Part shown: positions 41,130-49,127 of the stretch, piece after piece
Position numbering within the stretch: the first letter of the stretch is position 1
Layout: every line of letters starts with the position of its first letter
Assembly (NCBI GenBank): GCA_963698165.1
Contig: CAVOPT010000023.1
Location: forward strand, 25,704 to 89,703
Source: an uncultured delta proteobacterium
GTDB taxonomy: Bacteria; Desulfobacterota; Syntrophobacteria; Syntrophobacterales; Syntrophobacteraceae
Reading direction: 5' to 3'
Length of the DNA: 64,000 nt
Notes under the pieces: model-generated
Database searches by the model: none
What the model was told of the DNA's origin: nothing
Seen by the model: only the letters and a program-made list of their open reading frames with translations
Made by a program: the position numbers and the translations under genes

Positions 41130-41644
41130 ATGAAGATGACAGGTCGAGCGTGGAAGTTTGGCGATGACGTGGACACGGATGCCATCATCCCGGCCCGCTA
41201 TCTGAACACTTCCGATCCCCAGGTCCTGGCTTCCCATTGCATGGAGGACGCGGATCCACAGTTTGCGGCCAAGGTGCAGCCGGGGGACATCATGGTGGCA
41301 GGCAGGAATTTCGGGTGCGGTTCTTCCAGGGAACATGCCCCTGTTTCCATCAAGGGGGCCGGCATCGGGTGCGTGATCGCTCATAGCTTTGCCCGGATCT
41401 TCTACCGCAACGCCTTCAACATGGGCCTCCCCATCCTGGAATGCCCCGACGCCGCCGATGCCATCCAAACGGGAGACGAAATCAGGTGGACCTGGACAGC
41501 GGACTCATCGTGAATCGGTCTCGGCAGCGGAGCTACCATGCTCAGCCCGTCCCCCCCTTCATGCAGGAGTTGCTGCAAATGGGTGGCCTCATGCCGTACG
41601 TGGCGAAGAAAATGGCGGAGGAAGCCAAGCGAAAGGCGCGGTGA
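41130..41644 (+). pseudogene. leuD: 3-isopropylmalate dehydratase small subunit, interrupted by a 1-nt frameshift
   Basis: Frame 1 (41130..41513) gives [25 protein letters not shown]...[10 protein letters not shown]...[17 protein letters not shown], then nonsense and a stop. The expected C-terminus [35 protein letters not shown] continues in the -1 frame (ORF 41441..41644). The switch is at gaaatcagg (41478-41486), consistent with one missing base. Confidence 0.8.
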
Positions 41645-44945: not shown

Positions 44946-45108
44946 GGCATTGACCTGCAGGTTGAAGCGTTCGTATGAGCCTTTCCGGAAACCCTGCACT
45001 CCTGCTTCTGCAAGTCAGGTGTATTTGCTTTGTCGGATCGGTGCCGAGTGGGGGCAAATCTCCTCAATGGCGAAGGAGTCATGGGGACTCAAGGTGAAGG
45101 AAAGATGC

Positions 45109-45720
45109 ATGGAGAGGGAAAACCCTCAGGATTTCTCAAAGGTGATTCGTTTCCACGGGCATGTCTGCCCGGGACTCGCAATAGGTTACCGGGCGGCCCT
45201 GGCGGCACGATCGTACTTGGGGGCGGAACGCTCGCAAGACGAGGAGTTGGTCGCCATTGTGGAAACCGATGCATGCAGTGTGGATGCGATCCAGGTTGAG
45301 CTAGGGTGCACTCTGGGTAAAGGCAACCTCATCTATCGGGACTTGGGAAAGCACGTTTTCACGGTGGTGTCCAGGGAGAAGGGCAAGGCTGTCCGCGTTT
45401 CCATGAGGGGTGATGCCCTCCAGCAGAATCCAGAGCAGGAGGCTCTATTGCAGAGGGTTCGAAGCGGGGGGGCCACCGAAGAGGAACAGCGCGCTTACGA
45501 CGCCTTCCAGCAGGAACGGATATGGGAGCTTCTCCACATGGATGAAGACACCCTTTTTCGGATAGATGAAGTGGTGGTCGAGATTCCCGAGAAAGCCAGG
45601 ATTTTCAAGTCGGTCGTCTGCCACTACTGCGGAGAAAAGGTGATGGAACCCCGCGCTCGAATCCGGGATGGAGAAATCGCCTGCATGCCCTGCGCGAAAA
45701 GCTATTCCCGCGGTTGGTGA
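45109..45720 (+). CDS. FmdE-domain protein with C-terminal zinc-ribbon
   Basis: FHGHVCPGLAIGYRAA and ETDACSVDAIQV are the FmdE-family core. C-terminal CHYCGEKV...CMPC. ATG 45109 is preferred, with ATG 45067 possible. Confidence 0.7.
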   Translation: MERENPQDFSKVIRFHGHVCPGLAIGYRAALAARSYLGAERSQDEELVAIVETDACSVDAIQVELGCTLGKGNLIYRDLGKHVFTVVSREKGKAVRVSMRGDALQQNPEQEALLQRVRSGGATEEEQRAYDAFQQERIWELLHMDEDTLFRIDEVVVEIPEKARIFKSVVCHYCGEKVMEPRARIRDGEIACMPCAKSYSRGW

Positions 45721-45739: not shown

Positions 45740-45768
45740 TTGACAAGGGAATGGGCGTGGAGTACTGA
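45740..45768 (+). promoter_or_regulatory. candidate promoter for the cobalamin riboswitch transcript
   Basis: TTGACA (45740-45745), 17-nt spacer, TACTGA (45763-45768), about 20 nt upstream of the riboswitch. Confidence 0.4.
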
Positions 45769-45785
45769 AATATCGGGTCAAAAAA

Positions 45786-45956
45786 GAATTGGTTGGGCAC
45801 CAGGTACCGCAAGGTTTAAAAGGGAATCCCGTGTGAATCGGGAATGGTCCCGCCGCTGTAAACGGGGACGAAATCCGGAGCAGCCACTGTTTTGCGGGAG
45901 CGAAACGGGAAGGTTCGGAGAGTAGATTGATCCGTGAGTCAGAAGACCTGCCTGGG
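45786..45956 (+). promoter_or_regulatory. cobalamin (B12) riboswitch
   Basis: The conserved core reads AAAAGGGAAtcccGtGTGAATCggg...GGtCCCGCCGCTGTAAacGGGGACGAA...GCCACTG...GGGAAGG...AGTCAGAAGACCTGCC. This includes the B12 box (GCCACTG) and the terminal CAGAAGACCTGCC element, all in plus-strand orientation. Confidence 0.88.
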
Positions 45957-46026
45957 GGTCAATGGGCAATCGGCACGTGGAGATGCGCGATGCCCGGGTG
46001 AAGGATCAAGTGAACCAGGGTGCAAT

Positions 46027-46058
46027 CCTCAGAGCCAAAAGCTCTGAGGTTTTTTTTT
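46027..46058 (+). terminator. intrinsic terminator (likely riboswitch expression platform)
   Basis: cctcagagc-caaaa-gctctgagg (9-bp stem, 5-nt loop) followed by nine T (46050-46058), about 70 nt after the aptamer. Confidence 0.8.
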
Positions 46059-46173
46059 GTCCCAATTCCCTGTTGAGCGGTACTTGGAAACCGCTCAATA
46101 TTTCCAGGAACCTTTCCGCTGCCCGGAGGGGGTGTGTCATGCCACAACCCTGGGCACTCAACGGAGGTGTTGG

Positions 46174-46432
46174 ATGAAGAGAGGCATGATCCTTTATGTG
46201 ACCCATGGGAAACAGGAAGTTCCCCTGAAAGGATGCGGCGGAACTCGTTGAGATCTCAAGGTCTCTGGGGGTTGCCGCCGTTTGCGTGGTGACCACCCAG
46301 GAAGACGTGGCATCTGCATGGTGGCATCTGGTCGCCAGAGGGGTCCATCAGGTCCTGTTCATGACAGTGGCTTACGATCCCGCCCTGGATTCAAAGCTCT
46401 CCAGGGGAGTTCCTGTAAGCCTTTGCGGATGA
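46174..46432 (+). pseudogene. short ORF behind the B12 riboswitch, apparently frameshifted; weak resemblance to the N-terminus of CbiX-type chelatases
   Basis: ATG 46174 with GGAGG 6 nt upstream gives MKRGMILYVTHGKQEVPLK, then a stop at 46249. The +1 frame continues with protein-like DAAELVEISRSLGVAAVCVVTTQEDVASAWWHLVARGVHQVLFMTVAYDPALD... to the stop at 46430. RGMILYVTHGKQ resembles RGLVIVGHGSQ of short CbiX (from memory). The call is weak. Confidence 0.3.
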
Positions 46433-46596: not shown

Positions 46597-48302
46597 TCAT
46601 GACGGCAGACGGTCTTGCTCGCCTGGGAGAAGAACAGGCGGAGAAGTGGTCTTCTGCAGTTGCATGATCTCCTGGCAGCACTGATTCTTGAACGTGTAAT
46701 CCAACCCATTGATTGAAATCAGGTTCTCATCGCTCGTGAAGGCCTGAGTCGGGTAGTCCCGAATGAGTCTGCCACGGTGCATCACCAGTGTTCGCGCACA
46801 GGTCATGGCGATGATGTCCATGTCGTGGCTGATGACGATCCTGGTGACATCGAGCTGCTTGAGGATCTCACACAGGATCTCCTCGCTTTGGGGGTCCAGG
46901 TTCGCCGTGGGCTCATCGAGGATAAGAACTCGGGGCCTCATGCTCAGGATGGATGCCAGGGCGAGCCGTTTGCGTTCACCGGCGCTGAGATGATGAGGGA
47001 TTCTCTCGTCGAAACCCTCCATGCGAACCATTTTCAGGGCTTCCTGAACCCGGGCATCGACCTCGTCGGCGGGAAGGCCCAGCTGCCTGGGGCCGAAGGC
47101 CACCTCTTCCCTGCAGGAAGGGCAGAAAAGCTGGTCGGCCGGGTCCTGGAAAACCAGCCCACAATGTCTCCAGAGCTCTTTTCTGACTTTCCCGAAAACA
47201 GCCATGCCGTCGAATGAGATATTCTCCTTCCCCCTTGAGCAGGCCGCAAAGGCAGGACACGAGGGTTGATTTACCCGCCCCGTTCTCCCCTGTGATGGCC
47301 AACGATTCGCCCATTTGAATGGCCAGGCTGAATCTCACGGATACCCCATGTCCCGTCGGGATACCGAAACGAGAAGTCCTGCAGCCTTATCAGCGCATCT
47401 GTCGGCAGTTCCTTGTTCGTTCCTGGATGGTGCCTTTGAACTGCATCAGATAAGGCGGAGATGTGGTGATGATGAGGATGCCCTGCCGCATCGTCAGCGT
47501 CCACTTGGCAGCAGCTCAATCGGAATGTGAAGTCGAGACCATGTTCGCGCAGGTACGCCTTTTGAGAGACGAGGTCCTTCATGGAGAAATCGTGATGGAT
47601 TTTCCCTTTCTCCAGGACAACCGCCCTGGTGCAGAGGTCATAGAGGAAGAAGAGATCGTGACTGATGCAAATGAGTGTTCCAGGGAATTCCCGAAGCATC
47701 TCGAGGAAGAACTTCTCCTGCTTTGGGTCGAGATAAGCGGTTGGTTCATCGAGAATGAGGACTTCGGGATTCATGGCGAGGGTCGTCGCAAAGGCCGCCC
47801 GCTTTTTCTGTCCATAGCTCAAGTGATGGGGGGCCTTGTATCGGAGGCCTTCGAGACCAACCTTTTGGAGAGCCACCGAGACCCGGCTTTCAATCTCCAA
47901 CCTGTCCAATCCCTGATTCAGGGGTCCGAAGGCGATGTCTTCATCGAGTGTGTTGCAAAAAAGCTGGTCATCAGGGTCCTGAAAGAGCATCCCGATTCTC
48001 AGCCTTGCAGCGGCAAGGTTTGCGCCTTCCAAAGGCTCCCCTTTGTAGAGAATCTTGCCGCCGCGCGGTCGGTACAAACCGTTCAGATGCTTTGCAAGAG
48101 TGGTTTTCCCCGCCCCGTTCTGGCCGACGAGGGCGATTTTGTCTCCGGTGTGGATTTCGAGATCGATGCCATCCAGGGCCCGCCGGCCATCAGCGTAGTG
48201 AAAGACCAGGGATCGGATGCCGAACAGAAGTTCAGACTTCTCCCTGAAGGCGCCAAATGCTCTCTCATCGTCGCGTCCGACCGTGTCGGCTCCCTTGCTC
48301 AA
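46597..48302 (-). pseudogene. fused double ABC ATPase of ECF/CbiO-NikO type, interrupted by two frameshifts
   Basis: Domain 1 is intact (47271..48302: GQNGAGKTT, LSYGQKKR, LILDEPTAYLD). Domain 2 is split over two further frames. 46976..47338 holds VRFSLAIQMGESLAITGENGAGKST, and 46597..47205 holds LVFQDPADQLF, LSAGERKR, LILDEPTANLD and ISHD. The frame switches sit near the C-runs at 47344-47347 and 47230-47234. Confidence 0.75.
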
Positions 48303-48460
48303 GGCCTCACTCCATTCCAGGCGGCTGCTTCACAACAGAATCCCCTGTCGACACACGTGTTCATTTAACCAGTCTGAACGCCGAATTTCAACCTCGCATA
48401 AAGAGGCGGGTTTCGCGGTAGGACTACCAGGGAGGAGGAGTGTCCTTCTTCCAAGATGCA

Positions 48461-48913
48461 CTAAAAATTGAGGGTCACTCCGGCAAGCCAGGTGATGTCA
48501 TCTTCGGTTTCCGTGATTCCTCCCTTCACACCCAGATCGAAAGTCAGGTTGTCCGTAACGGCGAAGACAAGACCGCCGAGTATAAACGCAGCGGGGGTAT
48601 CGGACAGTTTGTCCGAGTTTCTCTCGGCTCCAATGTTGGCCACTGCGGTCAACCAGTTGCACACCTTCACCGTGGACGCCAGCGAGACATTCCACAGGTT
48701 GTTTCGTTCGTCGATGTCGTTCTCATTGCGCAGATAGCCTGCATTGAAATGAAAGGCAAAGCGCTCAAGCTCCTTGGAGGCAATGAAGTAGAACTGCGGG
48801 GACACCCTCCCAGAACCCAGTCCCTTGTCCTCATCCCCGGACGGAAACGTCACCCCGGGCTTGACAGCGAGCCCCCATCCGTCGCACTCCCTAAGCGTGC
48901 TGCAGGTAAACAC
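48461..48913 (-). pseudogene. C-terminal half of an outer-membrane beta-barrel protein (MetA/phenol-degradation-like family), apparently truncated
   Basis: PGVTFPSGDEDKGLGSG, alternating beta-strand pattern and a terminal ...WLAGVTLNF (aromatic C-terminus typical of OMPs). There is no signal peptide or N-terminal strands in any frame upstream, which suggests a 5' truncation. Confidence 0.45.
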
Positions 48914-48983
48914 GATTCTTCCAGCCTGTCAAGCCGAATTCATTGCCATTCCATGGGCACCTGAGGGTGGAAGCCTTTTCGAA

Positions 48984-49013
48984 TTGACATGCTGAAGCAC
49001 TTGTTCTTATGAT
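48984..49013 (+). promoter_or_regulatory. near-consensus sigma70 promoter upstream of the Nik/Cbi transporter operon
   Basis: TTGACA (48984-48989), 18-nt spacer, TATGAT (49008-49013). It would start a leader of about 200 nt before the ATG at 49227. Confidence 0.5.
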
Positions 49014-49127
49014 GGCAGCAATTGGGAAGTTGAAGCTTCCTGCCCTCTTTTTCGGGTGCACCTGAAGGTGCGGCGACAAACGCCTTCGCTCAACGGCTCC
49101 ACGGAATCAACCATTCTGGTCACGAAG

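Follow-up and report, generated by a model that had tools for sequence, protein, structure and literature searches.

The 64,000-nucleotide window (the whole stretch of DNA analysed here) contains a cobalamin riboswitch followed by an open reading frame that stops after 25 codons, which raises the question of what, if anything, this riboswitch controls. A sequence-only reading had taken it for an orphan, the relic of a former cobalt or corrinoid operon, whilst allowing that it might instead serve an unrecognised small protein. The comparative analysis supports the second of these readings. Promoter, aptamer, intrinsic terminator, structured spacer and strong ribosome-binding site would together form a complete unit whose proper, and only, target is a gene for an 85-aa protein. 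This unit very probably operates as an 'off' switch for that undescribed protein, the break in the gene being something other than an old relic. The features concerned are collected in Table 1.

Table 1. Features of the riboswitch unit and of the gene that converges on it (positions are those of the window).
Feature	Position	Strand	Basis
Promoter-like site: -35 TTGACA (45740-45745), 17-nt spacer, -10-like TACTGA (45763-45768)	45740-45768	+	conservation
Cobalamin riboswitch aptamer RF00174, full length	45785-45969	+	116.4 bits, E 1.7e-28, model positions 1-189 of 189
Intrinsic terminator (expression platform): 9-bp stem CCTCAGAGC/GCTCTGAGG, loop CAAAA, T9	46027-46058	+	terminator scan
Structured spacer with Shine-Dalgarno	46059-46173	+	MFE -51.2 kcal/mol, z -3.4
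Codons 1-20 of the 85-aa gene (MKRGMILYVTHGKQEVPLKG)	46174-46233	+	translation; identical to P0002/L006 except Q14E
Extra T (GGA T GCG; GGAGCG in L006)	46234	+	pairwise DNA alignment
Codons 21-85 and stop (AAELVEI...VPVSLCG*), +1 frame	46235-46432	+	translation
Fused double ABC ATPase (CbiO-type); two or more single-base frame breaks, near 47335 and 47205	46597-48302	-	Pfam ABC_tran on pieces

The riboswitch itself is an ordinary member of RF00174. A canonical cobalamin aptamer had been claimed at 45786-45956, and cmscan places a full-length one there with slightly wider bounds and a score that compares with a gathering score of 31.5 bits (Table 1); RF00174 is the sole Rfam family above threshold in the whole window. 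The 3' end of the aptamer falls at 45969 by cmscan and at 45965 by nhmmer, 205-209 nt before the ATG. Near this end lies the B12 box GAGUCAGAAGACCUGCC, which aligns to the consensus with high posterior probability and is invariant across related loci, and the aptamer as a whole is orthologous to those upstream of the same 85-aa gene in relatives. Although a generic strict-consensus promoter scan called no sigma-70 site upstream of the aptamer, the promoter-like hexamers that had been noticed there are borne out by conservation: in almost all of 29 related loci TTGACA stands in register upstream of the aptamer and is followed by hexamers of the TATAAG, TACAAG or TAATGA type. The same genome carries four other cobalamin riboswitches which, from translations judged by eye, precede cbiC-cbiX-cbiM-cbiQ (C10:146379-146619), cobT (C4:514733-514935), a large membrane protein without assigned function (C4:130786-130972) and genes for an MtaA-like methyltransferase, a corrinoid protein and a CobW-like GTPase (C10:268954-269159).

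Downstream of the aptamer, the strong terminator that had been proposed is present at the expected place, as a G+C-rich hairpin (46027-46049) running into nine T residues. A terminator of this kind, a hairpin with an energy of -13 to -20 kcal/mol and then T5-T10, was scored in 32 of 32 loci, lying about 84 nt past the aptamer in some 30 of them, and its stem shows compensatory changes among loci (CCTCAGAGC/GCTCTGAGG, CCCGAGTCC/GGGCTCGGG, CCTTGGGGT/GCTCCGGGG). The spacer that separates the terminator from the gene ends in what had rightly been called an excellent ribosome-binding site, with the Shine-Dalgarno (SD) sequence GGAGG at 46163-46167. In minimum free energy folds this SD is paired, both here and in nearly all of 25 related spacers, and its partner is one of two motifs, AAUUCCC (46064-46070, after the T-run) or AACCUUUCC (46109-46117, about 50 nt upstream). 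Both candidate anti-SD motifs are conserved in the spacer alignment, and between them lies a conserved hairpin that itself contains GGAGG. Since RNAalifold gave no good consensus structure for the spacer alignment, sequestration of the SD rests on single-sequence folds; together with the conservation, these suggest that the spacer may provide a second, translational layer of control.

This conserved anatomy points to a standard B12 'off' switch acting by transcription termination. With B12 plentiful, the aptamer would bind adenosylcobalamin, the terminator would form and transcription would halt before the gene; with B12 scarce, transcription would read through and the 85-aa protein would be made. 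Both the response to adenosylcobalamin and the termination are predicted from sequence.

The open reading frame was described correctly by the sequence-only reading: the frame opened by ATG 46174 has 25 codons before it meets TGA 46249-46251, and the +1 frame remains open as far as 46432. Compared with the syntenic gene on a 91%-identical metagenome contig (L006), the ORF shows a single gap column, the extra T at 46234, which lies outside any homopolymer. Owing to this T the uninterrupted ORF of about 85 codons that is usual in the family is not found in this assembly, where a genome search returns the match divided over two frames and in one copy only. Read across the T, the joined product has 85 aa and is 95% identical to the intact relative P0002 over 100% of its length; it retains Y8, G12, W49, L52, G56, Y67 and P80, with Ala in place of the near-invariant G48. 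Over the whole ORF, 11 synonymous and three non-synonymous differences separate it from L006 (dN/dS 0.083), of which 10 synonymous and two non-synonymous lie after the break (dN/dS 0.064), with a dS of about 0.19 between the two sequences. To judge by these substitutions the ORF is under strong purifying selection, after the break as well as before it, and the low dN/dS after the break argues that there has been no period of relaxed constraint that was long relative to the divergence from L006.

The gene belongs to an undescribed protein family that has no database model. No Pfam or NCBIfam family covers the small protein or eight of its relatives (for the window protein, Pfam at E<=1), a sequence profile search of the PDB returned nothing below E 0.46, and searches of the literature brought up no account of the family. 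Among 5.8 billion proteins 19 relatives were recovered, nearly all with a length of exactly 85 aa and an identity of 56-95% across 100% of the query; they come from metagenome-assembled genomes (MAGs) labelled Syntrophobacteraceae or Desulfomonilaceae. A profile search of 1.84 billion cluster representatives gave 48 clusters of about 81-88 aa, none of them fused to another domain. All source names read 'hypothetical protein' but one, an evident mislabel, and Desulfothermus naphthae JCM 12298 is a cultured carrier. Of 96 genomes from the order to which the window belongs, 65 have the family, almost always as one uninterrupted frame; across the phylum it was found in 25 of 401 sampled genomes, and as far as searched it appears to be restricted to Desulfobacterota. 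Nearly all relatives thus carry the same intact gene, of 81-88 codons, a result that speaks for the unrecognised small protein and against the relic.

Conservation in the family falls mostly on aromatic and polar residues (Y8, T10, G12, E14, P17, R29, G48, W49, W50, G56, Q59, Y67, F74, P80 and R82) and on a C-terminus of the form ...LRL[C/W/Y]G with an invariant final Gly; the alignment contains no conserved Cys/His pattern or metal site. The invariant residues are kept down to about 40% identity, and a strong SD precedes every member. From an alignment of 44 sequences, AF2 returns a compact beta-alpha-beta-alpha-beta-beta-beta model (pLDDT 80.9, pTM 0.71), whereas 16 sequences alone gave a poor one (pLDDT 58). 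Neither a signal peptide nor a membrane segment is evident by eye, and the product is predicted to be a cytoplasmic alpha/beta protein, its topology being that of the AF2 model. Among the matches listed by Foldseek against the PDB, none fell below E 0.03 or rose above a TM score of 0.5. Two copies of the small gene lie about 1.5 kb apart in some relatives (G024:C57 26583-28455, G025:C401 15290-17133 and G078:C58 2952-4684). A 47-aa sequence (P0020) considered as a second, truncated copy was rejected, being cut by a contig end. The syntenic copy in the same-genus genome G026 (L042 9740-10103) and P0009 have lost the stop codon and reach 117 aa, with a 32-aa extension that is conserved between the two samples, and the G026 copy also carries Y8H and Y67F at positions that are otherwise invariant; paralogues of this type may be diverging or changing function within the genus.

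The association of the family with cobalamin riboswitches is close. The small gene is preceded by RF00174, in the same orientation, in L006 and L007 (a 5.3-Mb genome contig), in nearly all of 29 loci within the order, and in 36 of 38 oriented loci, the aptamer usually ending about 200-215 nt before the ATG; one of the two remaining loci is at a contig end and the other is a tandem second copy. The same holds for 16 of 16 distant members, which belong to other families within the phylum. In several loci a second, different cobalamin riboswitch follows the small gene, beginning 59-78 nt past the stop in L063, L064, L066, L067, L069, L071 and L073 and found also in L011, L014, L016 and L022. It precedes transporter or receptor genes; such loci consist of two riboswitch units in tandem and not of one operon, and the small gene is there a monocistronic unit with its own B12 switch. 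Among the two ORFs that follow the gene in 27 loci, the families met with most often are TonB-dependent receptors (7), CbiK (6), CbiZ and BtuF-type binding proteins (4 and 3), CbiM (3), TonB (3) and BtuR (2), and BtuCD is also among the neighbours. Distant members repeatedly have as their partner a CbiK of the signal-peptide type, with a domain that begins 31-57 residues in, followed by FecCD and ABC genes; alternatively, CbiK or BtuR stands between the riboswitch and the small gene. This context resembles the arrangement in Desulfovibrio, where a B12-element lies upstream of cbiK-cbiL-btuCDF (Rodionov et al. 2004, PMC545781).

Within the window, the unit is followed by a block of convergent, damaged genes and then by intact plus-strand transporter genes (DUF4198-CbiM-CbiQ) that start at about 49.1 kb, roughly 3 kb away, in agreement with the earlier description. 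The block comprises the split ABC ATPase, which covers three frames against an intact orthologue of 567 aa in G026, and a Phenol_MetA_deg outer-membrane protein of which the C-terminal 150 aa are present. The ATPase is context and not a part of the riboswitch unit. The order FmdE gene, riboswitch, small gene and convergent ABC ATPase is common to L006, where the small gene is intact at 85 aa, and to G026, and this shared order implies that the riboswitch never headed a longer operon at this site. The conserved module, the intact gene in L006 and the purifying selection all contradict the view that the riboswitch is an orphaned relic. The FmdE-domain protein directly upstream (window 45094-45720) has a C-terminal zinc ribbon of the DksA/TraR type; the same neighbour occupies this position in L006 and L042 (G026), and in L056 an FmdE gene is found about 8.5 kb before the small gene. 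A His-rich linker joins the two ABC domains of the ATPase (window about 47403-47500, minus strand), with GHPHHHH here and GHSHHHTDSHNHEDMHG in G026, which suggests a metal-binding or sensing segment.

Because the rest of the unit is intact and its coding sequence lacks decay, the break should have arisen either as an error or very recently by mutation. Of the two, an error of assembly or consensus is the probable explanation of the extra T; a real, very recent mutation is a possible but less favoured one, and would leave the genome, which has this one copy, unable to make the protein. Neither allele around 46234 was matched when JGI metagenome contigs were scanned for the exact patterns. Frame breaks are not peculiar to this locus. 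In a comparison with 360 kb sampled from the congener G024, six of the 118 genes of the present genome that have a clear orthologue there (about 5%, or roughly one per 25 kb of coding sequence) were split between frames, against one of 142 (0.7%) in the reverse test on G024. The indels that could be placed all affect a single base, none of them in a homopolymer, and the coding sequence around them is conserved. One of the affected genes is leuD (window 41478-41513), which lacks one base relative to G026 (GAAATC-AGGTGG vs GAAGTCGAGGTGG), so that its conserved C-terminus falls into another frame; this deletion fits a background of single-base indels in the assembly. That about 5% of sampled genes, leuD included, carry such breaks points to consensus errors. 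The assembly has 28 contigs of up to 1.16 Mb and 6.3 Mb in all, which fits a long-read MAG. At this frequency of frame breaks, any call of a decayed gene or pseudogene in this genome needs support from reads.

The main rival explanation is that the region from 46.2 to 48.9 kb is being lost as a whole, with the small gene, the ABC ATPase and the outer-membrane gene as pseudogenes and an intact riboswitch that controls nothing useful. Within 1.2 kb there are at least three frame breaks, a clustering that would be unlikely if errors were evenly spread and that fits local decay, and the Phenol_MetA_deg gene is truncated at its N-terminus. In G026 (L042 12004-13851) a DUF3842 gene and a 384-aa Phenol_MetA_deg porin stand between the ATPase and the DUF4198 gene, whilst the window holds in their place (48303-49055) only a 461-bp segment encoding the last 150 aa of a different Phenol_MetA_deg porin, non-orthologous to that of G026 (BLASTP E 0.6), so that both genes are missing or replaced. 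Decay would also accord with the G48A change at a near-invariant site, with the want of a second small-gene copy where congeners have two, and with the state of the syntenic G026 copy, itself without its stop codon and altered at Y8 and Y67. Set against this are the low dN/dS and the excess of synonymous changes after the break, the intact promoter, aptamer, terminator and SD, and the genome-wide frequency of frame breaks. Moreover, the out-of-frame segments of the ATPase are as conserved as the in-frame one (72-86% vs 74% identity to G026). Even a real lesion would be young, and at this site the unit has never stood at the head of a longer operon. On balance, loss of the whole region is unlikely.

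Much less probable is antisense control, by which read-through into the convergent CbiO-type ATPase gene would modulate the Cbi/Nik transporter and the small ORF would be of secondary importance. Antisense-acting riboswitches are a described class (PMC9943018), the convergent layout is conserved in L006 and G026, and a scan of the plus strand between 46432 and 46597 found no terminator-like site, so that antisense read-through is possible at this locus. This does not extend to the family, however, as elsewhere the small gene is mostly followed by same-strand genes or a second riboswitch rather than by a convergent gene, and the ORF is under strong selection at the protein level. That the short ORF is a uORF or a structural RNA, and the 'family' a conserved RNA, is very improbable indeed: the ORF is small, lacks a known domain and follows a highly structured spacer, but its length of 81-88 codons and its invariant residues are conserved to about 40% identity, most changes are synonymous, a strong SD precedes each member, and the 44-sequence alignment yields a confident compact alpha/beta fold.

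Taking the 85-aa protein as the target of the switch, the system can be compared with those already known. It shares with the class I adenosylcobalamin riboswitches that employ a terminator (RF00174) a full-length aptamer, a B12 box and a terminator platform, as well as the control of a B12/cobalt acquisition regulon in Desulfobacterota. It differs in that the first, and often the only, controlled gene encodes the 85-aa protein, sometimes placed between two riboswitches. BtuG, BtuH, BtuM, CbrT, CbiN, DUF3842 and CooT-like proteins are accessory or unassigned members of the B12 regulon, known through riboswitch linkage and transporter context. The 85-aa protein differs from these in having no signal peptide or membrane segment, as judged by eye, and no Cys/His metal site, and it matches no Pfam or NCBIfam model. 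The gene goes without mention in the regulon reconstruction of 2004 (Rodionov et al. 2004, PMC545781).

Two further resemblances proved superficial. The N-terminus had been thought to recall CbiX-type cobaltochelatases, and its stretch 'ILYVTHGKE' does resemble the 'LVxMGHGSE' motif of the CbiX(S)/CbiK class II enzymes, of which CbiK is also the commonest neighbour of the family. Nevertheless, neither PF01903 nor PF06180 matches at E<=1, hhalign against 11 CbiK sequences gives a probability of 0.16% (E 0.36), the His at position 11 is variable (H/Q/E/K/L/R), 85 aa do not suffice for a chelatase half-domain, and the 50 Foldseek PDB matches listed include no chelatase. Similarly, the length of about 85 aa and the conserved C-terminus ending in Gly recall carriers of the ThiS/MoaD type, an identity rejected because the AF2 topology is not a beta-grasp, the C-terminus has a single Gly and not Gly-Gly, and the neighbourhood tallies (27 loci) include no E1-like partner.

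The regulation and neighbourhood of the family, namely its linkage to cobalamin riboswitches and its proximity to genes for cobalt and corrinoid acquisition, indicate that the 85-aa protein is most likely an accessory factor in the acquisition or handling of corrinoid or cobalt under B12 limitation. More specifically, and more tentatively, it could be a dedicated corrinoid/cobalt component in Desulfobacterota, for example a cytoplasmic acceptor or chaperone for CbiK-type, BtuCD or TonB-dependent imports, a proposal for and against which the case is nearly even. In any event, the new element at this locus is the target of the riboswitch, a small protein family, and not the riboswitch. If the proposal of a dedicated component is correct, the B12 regulon would include a protein family and a fold-level signature that are both new (no match in the PDB, the conserved aromatic residues Y8, W49, W50, Y67 and F74, and an invariant C-terminal Gly). 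The protein would be produced under B12 limitation alone and would matter enough to warrant a riboswitch of its own, its gene often being a monocistronic unit flanked by two. The family is tied to cobalamin riboswitches in essentially all of more than 80 loci across the phylum, and to genes for cobalt and corrinoid uptake, and this linkage provides a clear lead to a missing accessory function in anaerobic B12 acquisition.
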